Below, one piece after another: positions 4,370 through 39,524 of a DNA stretch of 64,000 nucleotides. Below the pieces are notes generated by a model, which saw nothing but the letters and a program-made list of their open reading frames with translations, made no database searches and was not told the origin of the DNA. The stretch comes from Candidatus Limnocylindrales bacterium. GTDB lineage: Bacteria; Chloroflexota; Limnocylindria; Limnocylindrales; CSP1-4. The stretch spans positions 17,998-81,997 of the forward strand of contig JBPPMZ010000069.1 of the NCBI GenBank assembly GCA_051306295.1, written 5' to 3'. Position 1 is the stretch's first letter. Each line of letters opens with the position of its first letter. The translations under genes and the position numbers were made by a program.

Positions 4370-4444
4370 GGCGGGGTGGAGCAGCGGCAGCTCGTCGGGC
4401 TCATAACCCGAAGGTCACTGGTTCGAATCCAGTCCCCGCAACCA
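4370..4444 (+). tRNA. tRNA-Met, initiator type (anticodon CAT). CCA is encoded.
   Basis: Cloverleaf: acceptor GGCGGGG/CCCCGCA with unpaired 1:72 (G.A), D stem GAGC/GCUC, anticodon stem UCGGG/CCCGA carrying three consecutive G:C pairs, loop CUCAUAA, T arm ACUGG-UUCGAAU-CCAGU, discriminator A, CCA. Near-identical to E. coli tRNA-fMet body. Confidence 0.85.
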
Positions 4445-4971: not shown

Positions 4972-5109
4972 ATGACCAGGTCAGCCCGGGTGACCATTTC
5001 GCGACAGACGAGCGTGGCCGTGGCCCCAGGATGCAGGATTCCGCAGGCTGGGGCCACGGCCCGTGCTCATTCGTTCAAGACTGGTCAGCGGGGGTGACCT
5101 GGTCAGCCA
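4972..5109. repeat. Repeat A: 138-bp element with terminal inverted TGACCaGGTCA / TGACCtGGTCA motifs and a central 14-bp perfect hairpin (GGCCGTGGCCCCAG ... CTGGGGCCACGGCC)
   Basis: About 90% identical to copy B at 5677-5814. Direct orientation. Confidence 0.7.
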
Positions 5110-5125: not shown

Positions 5126-5500
5126 TCAGCCAGCCGGCGACGCGGGCAGCGCATCCAGGAAGCGAACGGTGTCGAGCGAGGCCCGGTCGACCTGGAAGTC
5201 CCTGCCAGCAAAGGTCAGGGCCTCGAAGGTCAAGGTCACGCCATCGGCCTCGGTCACGACCAGGATGTTGCGACCGCCGATCGAGTCGTTCCAGAACCCG
5301 CCCCCGGCCGCCTGGGGGACCCAGGTGAGGATGCCGGTTCGGTCATTGGAGTCGCCATCCAGTGTCCAGCACGGGGCCGTCAGGTTCTCGCCGAAGTGCA
5401 GCTCGACCTCGACGGCCCGATGCCCGTCCATCGTGAACTCCTCCTGGCGGACGACGGTGAACCGTGCGTCTCCGTTCAGGTACGCCAGGAACGCGTCCAT
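5126..5500 (-). CDS. Hypothetical protein, likely 5'-truncated (protein-like coding continues upstream of the Met to an in-frame stop near 5611)
   Basis: 124-aa ORF. Upstream in-frame translation ...IDAGDYTFKVWKDLDGFADPCDLEKGRLLIDPG-M looks like genuine protein but has no start codon before a TGA. Confidence 0.4.
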   Translation of the reverse strand: MDAFLAYLNGDARFTVVRQEEFTMDGHRAVEVELHFGENLTAPCWTLDGDSNDRTGILTWVPQAAGGGFWNDSIGGRNILVVTEADGVTLTFEALTFAGRDFQVDRASLDTVRFLDALPASPAG

Positions 5501-5676: not shown

Positions 5677-5814
5677 ATGACCAGGTCAGCCCGGGTGACC
5701 GATTCGCGACAGATGAGCGTGGCCGTGGCCCCAGGATGCAGGAATCCGCCATCTGGGGACAGGGCGCGTGCTCATTCATTCGAAACAGGTCATCGGGGTT
5801 GACCTGGTTATCCC
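5677..5814. repeat. Repeat B: second copy of the 138-bp TGACC/GGTCA-rich element (central hairpin partly degraded)
   Basis: Aligns with 4972-5109 base for base over the first ~85 nt with few mismatches. Confidence 0.7.
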
Positions 5815-11737: not shown

Positions 11738-12943
11738 TCAGTTGGCTGTGAGGGTGCCGGTCATGTTCGGGTGGACCGTGCAGACGAAGGTGTACGACCC
11801 GGCCGCCAGGGCCGGGACGTCATAGGTATTCTGGGCTGGCCCGCTGAAGATCTCGCCCTTGAAGACCTCGGGACCGGTCGGCGAACCCTCGTGGATGGCC
11901 ACGTTATGCGGCACGCCGTTGTCCTTGTTGTCGAACGTGATCTGGAACGGGGCGCCGCCGGTCACGCTGACCGCGGTCTGTTCGAAGGCGATGTTCAGGG
12001 CACTGATCGCAACGGGCGGCCCGGCTGGGGCTCCGGATGTCCCTGGCTCACCGGACGGTGCCGGTCCATCGGACGGAGGCGGCGGTGGCGTGGCCTGTGC
12101 TTCGGCGATCTTGGCCGCCAGCCAGGCGTCGAAGTCCGCGGGCGTCAAGGCGTTCACTTCGAACAGCATGATCCGGTGCCCAGCGCCGCACAGCTCAGCG
12201 CACTGGCCGCGGAACGTCTGGCCGACGTCCTTCTCGTTGACGTCGAATTCGAAGACGTTGGTCCGCCCGGGCACCACGTCCCGCTTGAACAGGAACTGCG
12301 GCACGTAGAAGGCGTGGATGACATCCGGGCTGGTGAGATACAGCTTCACGGAACGGCCCACCGGGACCGCCATGCCGCCGCCCTCGCCGGTCGGGAGGTT
12401 CTGGGTATAGAGCGGGGCCTTCGCCGTCTCGCCGGCGGCGGGCGGCTCCCAGTCCGCGGGCAGGTATTCGAACTGCCACTGGAACTGGCCCGCCACCGCC
12501 CGGATCTTGACGTCCGGCTGCGCGGAGACCGTTTCGACCGCGTTGAGCGTCTGCCACGAAGCGACGAACAGGAACGCGACGATGAGCGTCGGGACGACCG
12601 TCCAGATCAGCTCTGCCACGTTGTTGCCATGCGTCTGGACCGGAAGGGTGTCGTCACCGGGCTGGCGCCGATAGCGGATGACGGACCAGACGATGAGTCC
12701 TTCGACGAGGAAGAAGATGATGACCCCGATCAGGAAGACGATCGTGTACAGGTCACGGATCTGGGCGCCCTGGCTCGTCACCGCCTCCGGTGGATACAGG
12801 CTGGTCACGATCCGCTGCGACAGGCCGACCAGGTCGCCACCGCTCAGGAGTGCGAGCACCGCGACCGTGGCGACCAGCAACGCCCCGACCACGATGGCCG
12901 TGGTCGTAGCGGATGAGCGGCCGGTCCTGGGGGAACTCGCCAT
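11738..12943 (-). CDS. ctaC: Cytochrome c oxidase subunit II with an extra C-terminal cupredoxin (plastocyanin/azurin-like) domain
   Basis: CuA site CAELCGAGHRIM, then Pro-rich linker, then PHNVAIH ... YTFVCTVHPNMTG type-1 copper ligand pattern. Confidence 0.9.
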   Translation of the reverse strand: MASSPRTGRSSATTTAIVVGALLVATVAVLALLSGGDLVGLSQRIVTSLYPPEAVTSQGAQIRDLYTIVFLIGVIIFFLVEGLIVWSVIRYRRQPGDDTLPVQTHGNNVAELIWTVVPTLIVAFLFVASWQTLNAVETVSAQPDVKIRAVAGQFQWQFEYLPADWEPPAAGETAKAPLYTQNLPTGEGGGMAVPVGRSVKLYLTSPDVIHAFYVPQFLFKRDVVPGRTNVFEFDVNEKDVGQTFRGQCAELCGAGHRIMLFEVNALTPADFDAWLAAKIAEAQATPPPPPSDGPAPSGEPGTSGAPAGPPVAISALNIAFEQTAVSVTGGAPFQITFDNKDNGVPHNVAIHEGSPTGPEVFKGEIFSGPAQNTYDVPALAAGSYTFVCTVHPNMTGTLTAN

Positions 12944-13274
12944 GCAGGGTCCTCAACGGTTCGGTCGGGGCACACACCCGGACCAGGCGCGGGTCAAGAA
13001 CGGGTAGCGGTCCGGCCCACGGGGGTCGGACGGCGCCATGATACCCGGAGCGTGGGCCGCTCGCGTGGTCCTGCGTTGTGGCTCGGTGGGAGCAGGCCAG
13101 GGGCGCGCGACCGGCGATGTTCCCCCCAGTACCGCATCCGCGATAGACACCTCGTGGAATCGCGACGAAACGACGACGCCGTGTCGATCCTGCAAGGGAC
13201 CACGCACGTTCGTTCAGGATCCGGTACTGGCCGCACCGCCGAGGCGCGGGATCGGTTCGTGCGACGATGCGGGC

Positions 13275-14297
13275 ATGCGCACCCGTCGGCCCGTGGCCCT
13301 CCTCGCGGCCTGGCTCGCCGCCGCTCCGGCCGTCAGCGCCCATGGCGCGACCCCATCGGAACCGCCGACCGCCGCCTCGCTCCTGTTCGAGTGGACGCTC
13401 GAGCCGCTGCCCACGCTCGGGATCGTGGTCGCGCTCGCCGTCTGGTGGCGGCTCGTTGGTCGGGTGAACGCGGCCCACCCGGCGAATCCGGTGCCGCGTC
13501 GGCGGTCGGTGGCGTTCGCCCTGGGGCTGGCGGCCATCGCTGTCGCGCTGTTGTCCGGCATCGATGCCTACGACACGACGCTGTTCTCCGTGCACATGGT
13601 CCAGCACGTCCTGCTCACGTTCGTCGCCGCGCCGCTCATCGCGCTGTCCGGTCCGATCACCCTCCTGCTCCGTGCCTCGACGCCCGCCGTGCGTCAGCGC
13701 TGGATCCTCCCGGTCCTCCACTCGCGCACGCTCCGCGTGTTGGCCTTCCCGGTCGTGGCCTGGGTGGTGTTCGCCGCGGTGATGTGGGCGAGCCACTTCT
13801 CGCCGCTCTTCGATGCCGCGTTGGAGGACCCCCTCCTCCACGACCTGGAACACGGCCTGTTCCTCGGGACCGCGCTGCTGTTCTGGTGGCCGGTCGTGGC
13901 CGTCGATCCCGGCCCGTGGCGGATGCCGCACCCCGTCCGGGCCTTGTACGTGTTCCTGCAGATGCCCCAGAACACGTTCCTCGCGGTCGTCCTGCTGGGG
14001 GCGACGAACGTGCTCTACCCGCATTACGCGTCGACCGGCCGCACCTGGGGTCCCACGCCGCTCGCCGACCAGGGCACGGCCGCGGGCATCATGTGGATCG
14101 CCGGCGACGTGGTGTTCCTCATCGCGATCCTGGGGGTGATCGGAGCCTGGATGCGATCGGAGGCACGCGAGACGGACCGGACGGACCGACGGGCGGACGT
14201 CGAGCGGGCGGCCATCCGCAGCCGCGAACGGGAGTTGGCCGATCGCCTGACCCGCGAGCGCGAGGACGCTCAGTCCGGGAGTGGCGTCTCCAGGTAG
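13275..14297 (+). CDS. ctaG: Cytochrome oxidase assembly factor, Caa3_CtaG/CopD-like polytopic membrane protein
   Basis: Signal peptide, 7-8 TM, HMVQH motif. Divergent from ctaC. Confidence 0.6.
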   Translation: MRTRRPVALLAAWLAAAPAVSAHGATPSEPPTAASLLFEWTLEPLPTLGIVVALAVWWRLVGRVNAAHPANPVPRRRSVAFALGLAAIAVALLSGIDAYDTTLFSVHMVQHVLLTFVAAPLIALSGPITLLLRASTPAVRQRWILPVLHSRTLRVLAFPVVAWVVFAAVMWASHFSPLFDAALEDPLLHDLEHGLFLGTALLFWWPVVAVDPGPWRMPHPVRALYVFLQMPQNTFLAVVLLGATNVLYPHYASTGRTWGPTPLADQGTAAGIMWIAGDVVFLIAILGVIGAWMRSEARETDRTDRRADVERAAIRSRERELADRLTREREDAQSGSGVSR

Positions 14298-15681: not shown

Positions 15682-15852
15682 ATGGCCACCGCGAAGGATC
15701 CCGTCTGCGGCATGGAGGTCGATACCACGACCTCGCTCCTGTCCCTGGAGCATGACGGCACGACCTACTGGTTCTGTGGCAAGGGCTGCCTGCTCGAGTT
15801 CAAGGACGACCCCGACAAGTACCTCGCCGAGGACTATCAGCCAAGCATGTAA
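15682..15852 (+). CDS. YHS/TRASH domain metal-binding protein (56 aa). Missed by ORF track (too short).
   Basis: MATAKDPVCGMEVDTTTSLLSLEHDGTTYWFCGKGCLLEFKDDPDKYLAEDYQPSM. GGAGG SD 8 nt upstream of ATG. Confidence 0.75.
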   Translation: MATAKDPVCGMEVDTTTSLLSLEHDGTTYWFCGKGCLLEFKDDPDKYLAEDYQPSM

Positions 15853-15867
15853 CAGCCCGACGGCCCT

Positions 15868-15990
15868 GCGTTCCTGCCAGTACCCGGATCGCGATGAACG
15901 TGCGTGGTCCCGCGCAGGATCGACAGGTTCCTGTCAGTTGGTGATCGGTCCACACGGGACTCGTAGCGAATCCGGTACTCAGGGGAACGC
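15868..15990. repeat. X-family element copy 1: 123 bp with about 20-bp imperfect terminal inverted repeats (GCGTTCCTGCCAGTACCCGG ... CCGGTACTCAGGGGAACGC). Internal sequence diverged from copies 2 and 3.
   Basis: Shares both termini and length with 37823-37945. Lies 3' of the YHS gene. Confidence 0.6.
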
Positions 15991-16236
15991 AGGCCGTCTG
16001 GGCCGCCCACCCGGCCTGGCGCGCGATCCGCGATAAGTCGCAGCTAAGCGGTCATGAGGACACTGCGCATCCGCGCTGGTGATCGGGCACTCCTTGGTGG
16101 GATCGCATCGGCGCCCCAGGCCGGCCAGATGCCGGCGGAGGTACTCGACGTGCGTGCCCGGATCCTCGCCTCGGCCATGGCCGTCCTCCCCGTCCTCGTC
16201 GCCTTCTTCGAGTTCGGTCGGCGATGGCACTGAGCC

Positions 16237-37796: not shown

Positions 37797-37822
37797 TCAG
37801 GAGTCGCGGCCGCCGCCCGCCT

Positions 37823-37945
37823 GCGTTCCTCTGAGTACCGGAATCGCGACGAACCCTTCGTGGATCGCCGACCAAACGACACGATCCTTTCGATCCTGCG
37901 TCGCACCGTGCACGTTCATACGGATCTCGGTACTCACCGGAACGT
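37823..37945. repeat. X-family element copy 2 (123 bp, TIRs GCGTTCCTCTGAGTACCGG ... CCGGTACTCACCGGAACG)
   Basis: Near-identical to copy 3. Distinct flanks on both sides. Confidence 0.7.
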
Positions 37946-38121
37946 GGCGGGTCACCACTAGGCCGCCGATCGCCGGGCGGCGTCCGCGTAGTCGGCATAA
38001 CGGGCCGGCGACCGGCGCCCATCGAGCCGGCTCCGGATGAGCCACTCACGACCGCGGCTCGATGGGTCGATCAACGCCATCCCGCGACCCGCCGCCGGCG
38101 AAATCCCACCCGGCATCAGCG

Positions 38122-38757
38122 TCAGGCCATCTCGCGTGCCCGAACCGGAAAGGCAGTGTTCAAGTACGGCCGGTTGGCCCACAGCACTCGCTCGACCTCG
38201 TCACTGGCCAAGACGAGCAGCCAGGTCTGGACTCGCCGTGGCTCCCAGCCGAGCTCTCGTGCGCGGTCCCAGGCCGCCCGCTCATACCAGCCGAGTTGGC
38301 GCTCCACGGCGCCGAGATCATCGAGCCGCGTCTTGACCTCGATTACAAGAAGCGTCCGGGTCCTGGGGTCGAAGGCCAGCAGGTCGATCCAACCGTGCGA
38401 CCGACCGTGGACGATCTCGATCTCGCGCGCCGCGTCCCACCCCTGGCTGCGCAATCGACGCTCGACATAGGCCGAACATCGAGCGTGGACGGCATCGCGC
38501 ACCCGCGGCCCGCCGATGATGGTCGGGCGGCGGATCGCCAGGTCGACCTCGAGACCGAGGGCCTGGGCGATCGCTTCTACGCGACGTATCGATGGATTCG
38601 CATCGCCGCGCTCGACCCTGGCGATATAGCTCCGGGTGACCCCCGCCCGATCGGCGACGGCCTGCTGCGTCAGGTCCAACGCCAGGCGCGTGTCGAGGCA
38701 GGCCCGGGCGAATGTCGTCCGGACCGGCTGCCGTGCGGGGCCGGTACTCGATGTCAT
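38122..38757 (-). CDS. XRE-family HTH domain fused to a PD-(D/E)xK nuclease-fold domain
   Basis: From ATG at 38757: HTH TQQAVADRAGVTRSYIARVERG. C-terminal core GWIDLLAFD ... LLVIEVK (Asp, then Glu-x-Lys). The 288-aa track ORF over-extends into the repeat. Confidence 0.6.
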   Translation of the reverse strand: MTSSTGPARQPVRTTFARACLDTRLALDLTQQAVADRAGVTRSYIARVERGDANPSIRRVEAIAQALGLEVDLAIRRPTIIGGPRVRDAVHARCSAYVERRLRSQGWDAAREIEIVHGRSHGWIDLLAFDPRTRTLLVIEVKTRLDDLGAVERQLGWYERAAWDRARELGWEPRRVQTWLLVLASDEVERVLWANRPYLNTAFPVRAREMA

Positions 38758-38837
38758 GCGGACATTGGAGCAGAGGGCCCTTACCCCGGACTTACCCGGG
38801 GCTCTTCCGGCCCGTCGCCGTTCCACCGCGCGCCCGG

Positions 38838-38958
38838 TGTGCCCCTGAGTACCGGAATCGCGACGAACCCTTCGTGGATCGCCGACCAAACGACACGATC
38901 CTGCCGATCCTGCGTCGCACCGTGCACGTTCATACGGATCTCGGTACTCACCGGAACG
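38838..38958. repeat. X-family element copy 3 (about 121 bp), direct orientation relative to copy 2
   Basis: Differs from copy 2 by about 3 substitutions internally. 5' outer TIR partly degenerate (GTGCCCCT vs GCGTTCCT). Confidence 0.7.
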
Positions 38959-39023
38959 TTGGCCACCCTGACCATCGGGAGCCCCCACGTCACCGAGCGC
39001 GACGACGGACTACACTTCGCGAC

Positions 39024-39524
39024 GTGACCGACCTCACCGAACGTGCGGTCGCCCGTCGCGTCCCATCGCTGACCGACGAGCGCCTCCGTGTCCTCAGCCG
39101 TCGCCAGCCTGTGACCGTCCCATCGGGCACGACGCTGGCCGACTGCGTTCGCGCCATCCAGCGGTCCGGCACCGGCGATTCCGTGTTCGTGTGCGACCCG
39201 GAGGACCGCCTCCTGGGCGTCCTCACAGAACGTGACATCTTCAGCCGCATCGTCGGTGGGACCGTGGACCTGACCCAGCCGGTCGAGAACTTGATGACGA
39301 CCGAGCCGCGCACCCTGGACCTCGACCAGACGATCCGCGACGCCATCGAGCTCATGCAGACCGGCCGATATCGCAACGTCCCCGTCGTCGACGAGCATGG
39401 CCACCTTGCCGGGGTCGTGCGCCAATCCGACATCATCAGGTACCTGGCCGAGTCGTTCCCCGAAGAGCTGCTCAACCTCCCACCGAGGCCACACCAGCGC
39501 ATGAAGGAGCCAGAAGGGGCGTGA
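39024..39524 (+). CDS. CBS-pair domain protein
   Basis: GTG start. Two CBS motifs. GTGA-coupled to korA. Confidence 0.7.
   Translation: MTDLTERAVARRVPSLTDERLRVLSRRQPVTVPSGTTLADCVRAIQRSGTGDSVFVCDPEDRLLGVLTERDIFSRIVGGTVDLTQPVENLMTTEPRTLDLDQTIRDAIELMQTGRYRNVPVVDEHGHLAGVVRQSDIIRYLAESFPEELLNLPPRPHQRMKEPEGA

Follow-up and report, generated by a model that had tools for sequence, protein, structure and literature searches.

The window analyzed here is a 64 kb stretch of a Candidatus Limnocylindrales contig (JBPPMZ010000069.1), and carries on its minus strand a gene for a protein with an XRE-type helix-turn-helix (HTH) domain at its N-terminus and a predicted PD-(D/E)xK nuclease-fold domain at its C-terminus. 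The gene lies between two direct repeats, at 37820-37945 and 38834-38959, which are 95–97% identical, with no such match expected by chance, and which represent copies of a palindromic element bounded by terminal inverted repeats (TIRs). This flanking pair had already been noted in an initial annotation of the window and stands, except that the element family has six copies in the window rather than two, the other four being intergenic and away from the gene. The positions of these features are given in Table 1. The downstream element lies 6 nt past the stop codon of the gene (as restored below), and 19 nt past that of the neighboring aldolase gene.

Table 1. The HTH-nuclease-fold gene and the copies of the palindromic element, in window coordinates.
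Feature	Position	Strand	Details
Full family gene	37958..38757	-	XRE HTH, linker, PD-(D/E)xK domain; 1-nt frameshift at ~38125-38128; restored length 266 aa
Domain limits in restored protein			XRE HTH, residues 12-67; PD-(D/E)xK domain, residues ~89-266
Frameshift site	38122..38128	-	GAGATGGCCTGA where relatives read through
Catalytic-type core codons	38332..38424	-	E112, E114, H121-G-W-I-D125, E140-x-K142
cis-box upstream of ATG	38764..38796	-	GGTAAG-N5-GGTAAG, N10, TCCAAT preceded by TG, 6 nt, ATG
Upstream flanking element	38830..38963	+	Between XRE gene and divergent CBS-korAB operon
TIRs of upstream element	38839-38853; 38943-38957		GTGCC-CCTGA-GTACC; GGTAC-TCACC-GGAAC
Downstream flanking element	37815..37952	+	TIRs 37825-37839 and 37929-37943
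Solo copy, GTACC/GGTAC type	13110..13245	+	Divergent COX2 / CtaG intergenic space; 66% identical to flanking copies
Solo copy, GTACC/GGTAC type	15862..15996	-	After small YHS-domain gene; 74-75% identical to flanking copies
GTCAC/CTGAC-type copy	4976..5102	-	Pairs with 5681-5790
GTCAC-type partner copy	5681..5790	+	Inverted relative to 4976-5102

The gene and its protein

The minus-strand open reading frame (ORF) at 38122..38757 codes for 211 aa plus a stop, and its product is identical to an NCBI protein (P0001) of a Candidatus Limnocylindrales metagenome-assembled genome (MAG). The ORF had been taken as the complete gene, and it is indeed present, but it is truncated by a 1 nt frameshift. 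Homologues are 250–290 aa in length and share a conserved tail of ~55 residues (GRGLALIDPxSRRRxWLIRxxxDGRRSPxxYxDYADAARR) that is absent from the annotated product of the window. The window encodes this tail in another frame (38128..37958, ending at a TAG at 37960-37958), and a second tblastn segment, covering residues 211-247, maps to 38128..38018. Since the tail is conserved in homologues but out of frame here, the family gene must extend over the longer interval given in Table 1. Compared with the DNA of the closest relative, one C is absent in GGCC(C)TG, resulting in a premature TGA at 38122-38124 that falls in a variable linker, ahead of the last beta-strand. A genuine frameshift would deprive the product of two parts of the fold modeled by AlphaFold2 (AF2), a strand (residues 225-230) and a helix (257-265), and also of the near-invariant residues D231, P232 and W239. 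Because the frameshift removes this conserved last strand and helix, the window copy is either inactivated, if the frameshift is genuine, or mis-assembled. In several relatives (L001, L002, L018, L039, L065, L091, L112 and L120) the called ORF continues antisense to the convergent aldolase gene, and this run-on yields spurious C-terminal extensions of ~35 aa (…APxDTNxPSEPxPMN…) in database proteins.

The assignment of the N-terminal domain as an XRE HTH was confirmed by a match to Pfam HTH_3 (PF01381) over residues 24-72 (56.7 bits against a cut-off of 23, E=2.5e-15), and the AF2 model places the HTH helices at residues 12-67. The domain shares 36% sequence identity with the restriction-modification (R-M) controller protein C.BclI, and the best PDB matches, both by sequence and by structure, are C.BclI and C.AhdI, followed by HipB. 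When superimposed on the controller-protein structures by Foldseek, the root-mean-square deviation is 1.1–1.3 Å across 57–59 residues.

The C-terminal domain falls outside all curated Pfam and NCBIfam models, and a PDB sequence-profile search made with it found nothing. Its structure was modeled with high scores by AF2, both in the restored protein (predicted local distance difference test, pLDDT, of 88.9) and for the C-terminal 183 residues alone (pLDDT 91.7, predicted TM-score, pTM, of 0.89), and the predicted topology is alpha-beta-beta-beta-alpha-beta (H4-21, E25-34, E37-47, E52-59, H65-85 and E92-100 in the numbering of the domain model). Foldseek returned only HTH matches with the whole-protein model, and the C-terminal domain was therefore modeled alone for fold matches. 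The scores of these are marginal, with a best E of 2e-4 and query TM-scores of at most 0.42, yet nearly all of the PDB matches are PD-(D/E)xK enzymes, including the restriction-like endonuclease of the R2 retrotransposon, XisH, Upx, Can2/Card1, Hjc, AddAB and the cap-snatching endonucleases of bunyaviruses. In the viral library (BFVD), the fold matches are phage exonucleases, homing endonucleases, and MmcB- and Mrr-like proteins. Weak, sub-threshold hidden Markov model (HMM) matches of the domain were found to NucS_C (13.9 bits against a cut-off of 24, E=0.055, the similarity spanning residues 120-162), UPF0102/YraN, NOV_C and sce7726, as well as to NCBIfam PRK04247 (E=0.016–0.02, where the cut-off is 216 bits).

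The initial annotation had called the nuclease fold from a motif, and both parts of that motif, HGRSHGWIDLLAFD (residues 117-130) and TLLVIEVK (135-142), are present. In the model, D125 lies in strand 2 and E140-x-K142 ends strand 3, and the helix that follows the core carries D147, R153 and a RecB/NucS-like QxxxY motif (Q154xxxY158). Among 149 representatives of 50%-identity clusters, E112 is conserved in 137, D125 in 142, E140 in 146 and K142 in 148; the corresponding counts for D147, R153 and Y158 are 146, 148 and 144. The call is thus upheld by the structural matches and by an Asp / Glu-x-Lys signature that is near-invariant in homologues. The family pattern can be written as hhhD ... hhhExKTR ... 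QxxxY, which we take to be the RecB/NucS-type arrangement. As modeled, the C-terminal domain has a PD-(D/E)xK fold with an intact putative catalytic constellation.

Two groups of known PD-(D/E)xK proteins share parts of this arrangement. The order D ... E-x-K followed by a QxxxY helix is shared with NucS/EndoMS and with other RecB-family nucleases (Cas4 and the AddB nuclease domain), and so is a two-domain build in which DNA binding is at the N-terminus and the nuclease at the C-terminus. The similarity to NucS is, however, sub-threshold, an XRE HTH replaces the NucS N-domain, and there is an extra C-terminal strand and helix tail. XisH, YraN/UPF0102, Hjc and the sce7726 family share the core fold and the pattern h-h-h-D ... 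h-h-h-E-x-K-T/S-R but are without the XRE HTH and the C-terminal tail, and the similarity to them is marginal (Foldseek E ~1e-3 or weaker; HMM E 6e-4 or weaker, below curated cut-offs).

Distribution and gene neighborhoods of the family

A profile of the C-terminal domain matched 1155 clusters at E≤1e-3, and at E≤1e-30 the number was 193. In most of the matched clusters the members are 260–290 aa long, with the domain starting from about residue 80, that is, the same architecture as the window protein. Species-level loci were collected with one genome per species, and all 77 of them belong to MAGs of Chloroflexota / Limnocylindrales, each MAG carrying 1–3 paralogues. Very specific peptide patterns were used for this collection, and more distant lineages may carry the family too; across the genome searches made, it was met only in Chloroflexota (Limnocylindria) MAGs.

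The order korAB operon, HTH-nuclease-fold gene, convergent HpcH/HpaI aldolase gene recurs in 18 other distinct loci, often with a gene for an extracytoplasmic function (ECF) sigma factor next after the aldolase. The proteins of these loci are 59–69% identical to that of the window over the C-terminal domain. The closest relatives (83–88% identity) keep the same order, and the arrangement CBS - korA - korB - (zinc-ribbon)CBS is also kept in two relatives (L001 and L002). The gene had been viewed in the initial annotation as an insertion between the aldolase gene and CBS-korAB, but its retention at this position across so many loci shows that it is not one. Other paralogue groups occupy stable neighborhoods of their own, beside IclR and MscS genes, a class-III aminotransferase gene with a small HTH_17 gene, or PurK. 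No neighbor gene is common to all paralogue groups, and the neighbors are metabolic or regulatory in nature. The gene therefore stays in place and is inherited vertically.

The neighborhoods also bear on a role in defense. A minimal addiction or defense module had been suggested for the locus, and such a module might be of a restriction type, like a Type IV enzyme, or consist of a toxin fused to its antitoxin. In favor of this, the protein joins an HTH to a PD-(D/E)xK domain and stands alone with no methylase, as Mrr-type enzymes do, and its HTH resembles those of R-M controller proteins and CapH. A search for conserved neighbors gave housekeeping genes that differ between paralogue groups (IclR/MscS, aminotransferase, PurK, aldolase/korAB), and no partner gene or defense island. 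The 79 flanking genes contain 61 Pfam families, and neither a methyltransferase nor a restriction-enzyme family is present in the top 25 of these by frequency, or among the neighbors of the gene in the window, and no toxin, methylase, integrase or defense gene is a recurrent neighbor of family genes. PADLOC matches cover the HTH only, and searches of IMG/VR viral contigs and PLSDB plasmids turned up no relatives. Together with the syntenic position and vertical inheritance of the gene, these results make a defense or addiction module highly improbable.

The palindromic element and its association with the gene

BLAST comparisons, with no match in L001–L004 and hardly any in 81 loci, had given the impression that the repeats were a window-specific element unrelated to the gene, but this was overturned by profile searches. 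An element HMM was built from four of the window copies and, after three further rounds, comprised 86 copies. The element is ~135 bp in length, with an interior conserved over ~100 bp and ends that are 15–17 nt inverted repeats of the form G-NNN-C N5 G-NNN-C. These TIRs are often perfect 7-1-7 palindromes, for example GTTCCTGTCAGGAAC or of the GTTCCTGNCAGGAAC type. The two ends covary: 82% of cells are paired, with 179 double-sided changes, a level reached in none of 500 shuffles and well above slid controls (26–49% paired). Long-range pairing of the TIRs (82%) also gives a better fit than local hairpins (77%). As G-U pairs show no excess over other mismatches, the constraint on the TIRs acts at the level of DNA and not RNA. 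A riboswitch or leader reading was considered and dropped, given that copies are convergent, divergent or 3' of genes and that their covariation comes without G-U enrichment. Rfam searches of the repeat region and the whole window found no family besides a tRNA; the gene for this tRNA (4370-4441, plus strand) lies ~530 nt from the GTCAC-type pair of elements.

The association with the gene was counted among the 69 loci with a mapped gene start (632 kb in all), using a detection threshold of E≤1e-3. An element adjoins the gene in about half of these loci, with an upstream copy in 32 of 66 testable loci and a downstream copy in 25 of 60, and 57 of the 60 HMM matches are no more than ~400 nt from an end of the gene. 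Both flanking copies are found in 20 loci, in direct (11) or inverted (9) orientation, so the description of the gene as the sole cargo between repeats, first made for the window, holds for other loci of the family as well.

The type of TIR follows the protein clade and the sequence of the recognition helix. Proteins with ...IAK(V/I)E(L/R)G in this helix go with GTTCC/GGAAC ends, those with SR(A/P)YIA(T/A/S)IE(S/T)G with GTCAC/GGCAC, those with SRGYIANIE with GCGCC, and those with TRSYIAR(V/I)ERGDANPS (the window and L013) with GTACC/GGTAC; GCATC ends are found at L031 and L036. Even paralogues within a single genome (MAG094) differ in type, with GTTCC at L023, GTCAC at L046 and GTCAG at L069.

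Copies flanking the same gene are more alike (median identity 62.5%) than copies from different loci (44%, 95th percentile 56%), the most similar pairs being those of L008 (98%), the window (96–97%) and L064 (92%). In L202, the closest relative, both flanking copies occupy the same positions as in the window. The downstream copy of the window is 97% identical to the upstream copy of the window, 73% to its positional orthologue in L202 and 82% to the upstream copy of L202, and the two window copies share derived substitutions. The downstream copy is therefore a recent copy or a conversion tract. In L203–L205 (83% protein identity) there is no downstream copy and two tandem copies are found upstream (117-249 and 2-99 in L203). 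Tandem pairs by a family gene are also present in L005 (2734-2860 and 3106-3232, 98% identical) and L077 (5536-5668 and 5682-5806). The association between element and gene is strong and type-specific, and the element has been duplicated, converted, gained and lost.

This association is pertinent to two further explanations. The first takes the protein as a NucS- or Hjc-like chromosomal repair or recombination nuclease in which an HTH replaces the usual DNA-binding domain, the palindromic elements being unrelated repeats or terminators that build up in permissive intergenic spaces. Such an enzyme would fit the RecB/NucS-like motifs, the weak NucS_C/YraN HMM matches, the presence of Hjc and AddAB among the fold matches, and the vertical, syntenic inheritance in housekeeping neighborhoods. 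A chance juxtaposition is hard to square with the near-exclusive placement of the element beside the gene, or with an element type that follows the paralogue. It would also be unusual for a core repair enzyme to be present in a genome as 1–3 diverged paralogues that differ in their repeat type. We consider this explanation quite unlikely.

The second is an autonomous, insertion sequence (IS)-like transposon, or the relic of one, in which element, nuclease gene and element move jointly and solo copies correspond to miniature inverted-repeat transposable elements (MITEs). TIR-bearing ends do lie on both sides of the nuclease gene, in either relative orientation, solo copies are present in the window, and the R2 retrotransposon endonuclease and XisH are among the best fold matches. 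Like MITEs, the solo copies are short, TIR-bearing, non-coding intergenic elements related to the sequences that flank an enzyme gene. They differ from MITEs and their parent IS in that no target-site duplication was found and no known transposase family is present, and gene plus elements do not form a multi-copy mobile unit. What would be the 'ends' of the transposon are not simple TIRs but full 135-bp palindromic elements, the paralogues are diverged and not near-identical copies, plasmid or phage copies were not found, and the chromosomal position is kept across species at 59–69% identity of the C-terminal domain. An IS-like transposon is, on this evidence, very unlikely.

Candidate autoregulation and action on the repeats

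A second conserved DNA feature is found immediately upstream of the family genes. All paralogue groups share a layout of 2–4 xTAAG hexamers (GGTAAG, GATAAG or GCTAAG) in a phase of ~11 nt, followed by a spacer of ~10 nt, the box TGnT(T/C)nA(C/A)T, another 5–8 nt and the ATG or GTG start codon. Of 70 upstream regions, 48 carry the box-plus-start pattern, compared with 0.7% of 1706 control segments. Iterons and box in combination were found solely ahead of family genes, with a single occurrence in the window, which places the start of the gene at the ATG at 38757. The box probably represents an autoregulatory operator together with an extended -10-like promoter that would give a leaderless or short-leader mRNA, and family genes are accordingly predicted to be autoregulated through the iterons and the promoter box. 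R-M controller (C) genes are often leaderless, and the window gene resembles those of C.BclI, C.AhdI and C.Esp1396I in its HTH and in having repeated boxes directly upstream of its own, near-leaderless start. Unlike C proteins, it has no R-M genes nearby and its HTH is fused to a nuclease fold, and unlike the palindromic C-boxes, the upstream boxes are direct xTAAG iterons phased at 11 nt.

Two other observations concern this region and its pattern. The CBS-gene ORF as listed (38712-39524, plus strand) begins within the promoter region of the XRE gene, and a GTG at ~39026, ~65 nt past the upstream element, is more likely to be its true start. At 16030-16053 (plus strand) an iteron-like sequence, GATAAGTCGCAGCTAAG, directly precedes the ATG of a 59-aa ORF (16054-16233, plus strand). 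It lies by the solo element at 15862-15996 and may be what is left of the promoter of a lost paralogue, but there is no HTH-nuclease gene at this place and blastx found no family remnant.

Of the four copies that do not flank the gene, the two of the resident GTACC/GGTAC type (BLAST limits 13115-13228 and 15869-15993) match the flanking copies along their full length, and so are homologous DNA and not convergent binding sites. The other two are of the GTCAC type and bracket a 124-aa ORF (5126-5500, minus strand) that is unlike the HTH-nuclease family and has no Pfam match, which suggests that the genome carries a further paralogue with GTCAC specificity outside the window. A decayed family gene was not found beside any of the four. 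The COX2 and CtaG genes (11738-12943 and ~13276-14297) and the nearby YHS-type gene may form a copper-related cluster. The last of these is a 56-aa gene (15682-15852, plus strand) with a good ribosome-binding site, and a YHS/TRASH-type metal-binding domain was recognized in it by eye (MATAKDPVCGMEV...FCGKGC).

We tentatively favor the reading that the gene encodes an HTH-nuclease which regulates its own expression and whose substrate is its cognate repeat family, much as in REPIN-RAYT systems. An HTH dimer would recognize the terminal palindromes of the cognate element, the nuclease domain would cut at or near these palindromes, and repair of the break would copy or homogenize the elements. 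Cutting and repair copying of this kind would account for the concerted flanking copies, the gain and loss of copies in close relatives, and the solo intergenic copies.

The principal rival is that the protein is an ordinary, autoregulated transcription factor. The elements would then be composite operators, each with two palindromes about ten helical turns apart, the copies on either side of the gene would permit repression through DNA looping, the solo copies would mark a regulon (korAB, COX2/CtaG and the YHS gene), and the nuclease fold would serve as a dimerization or sensor domain. Palindromes of 15 bp with a 7-1-7 layout are typical sites of HTH dimers, the HTH is closest to those of R-M controller proteins and HipB, the promoter-proximal box is conserved, and copies in the window lie in divergent promoter regions of energy-metabolism or copper-related genes. 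On the other hand, homology spans the whole of the elements, well beyond the 15-bp sites, with solo copies 66–75% identical, and the tandem duplicates, the gain and loss in close relatives and flanking pairs of 97–98% identity point to copying of DNA. A near-invariant E...D...ExK...QxxxY constellation would be needless in a pure sensor or dimerization domain, and other genomes have almost no copies off the gene that could make up a regulon. A role limited to transcription is for these reasons unlikely.

Several points also weigh against an HTH-nuclease acting on its repeats. The nuclease activity of the protein, its DNA binding and the mobilization of the element are all predicted. The iterons by the start codon stay the same whatever the TIR type, and they rather than the TIRs may thus be the target of the HTH. 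The match between TIR type and clade could simply mirror shared vertical descent. About half of the loci have no element detectable at the threshold used. Just three of the 60 matches lie away from the gene in the ~630 kb of other loci, a biased sample since these loci were chosen through the gene, and of two metagenome pattern scans for elements irrespective of the gene, one gave 0 hits and the other 120 random hits, among which there was neither an element nor a family gene. No target-site duplication was detected, the longest direct repeat in the flanks averaging 3.70 nt compared with 3.74 nt in shuffled pairs, although old element copies could have lost such a duplication. Lastly, the gene in the window is frameshifted, yet its flanking pair is the third most similar.

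In their logic, REPIN-RAYT systems (REP doublets with REP-associated tyrosine transposases; Bertels & Rainey) come closest to the locus. In these, a single-copy, vertically inherited enzyme gene resides at a fixed extragenic position and is flanked by cognate palindromic repeats, and several enzyme/repeat families may coexist in one genome (bioRxiv 10.1101/2021.07.10.451892). The gene described here is likewise chromosomal, vertically inherited and kept in an extragenic position, and is absent from the plasmids and phages searched. It is flanked by cognate palindromic repeats of ~100–140 bp that have more extragenic copies in the window and no detected target-site duplication, and paralogue/repeat pairs of different types coexist in one genome. 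The enzymes differ, as RAYT is an HUH/Y1 (IS200-like) transposase while the protein here combines an XRE HTH with a PD-(D/E)xK domain and has Pfam and NCBIfam matches only to HTH families and, weakly, to PD-(D/E)xK ones, and the locus is therefore not a member of the REPIN-RAYT group. The repeats are also built differently, with terminal palindromes of 15–17 bp around an interior of ~100 bp, where a REPIN consists of two short REPs with a GTAG head. In addition, copy numbers appear low in most genomes, and mobilization is only proposed. In the literature searched, no XRE-PD-(D/E)xK protein has been described with palindromic repeats.

If the HTH-nuclease does act on its repeats, a broader proposal by analogy is that it represents a second, independently evolved and vertically inherited replicator made up of enzyme and repeat, in which HTH-guided PD-(D/E)xK cutting at the terminal palindromes and break-induced gene conversion take the place of HUH transposition in copying or homogenizing the element, with enzyme and repeat specificities that co-diversify in Limnocylindria genomes. 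This is possible but doubtful.

Read conservatively, the results describe an uncharacterized family of at least 1155 clusters (at 50% identity) for whose nuclease domain there is no Pfam or NCBIfam model, and which has a defined active site, a promoter/operator box and a companion DNA element. Should the nuclease truly act on the flanking repeats, the REPIN-RAYT lifestyle would have arisen at least twice, on unrelated catalytic folds, one of these times in a phylum-level lineage that is uncultured and poorly known. The family would then offer a compact natural set of HTH-nuclease/palindrome specificity pairs, well suited to studying the co-evolution of DNA recognition and its targets.

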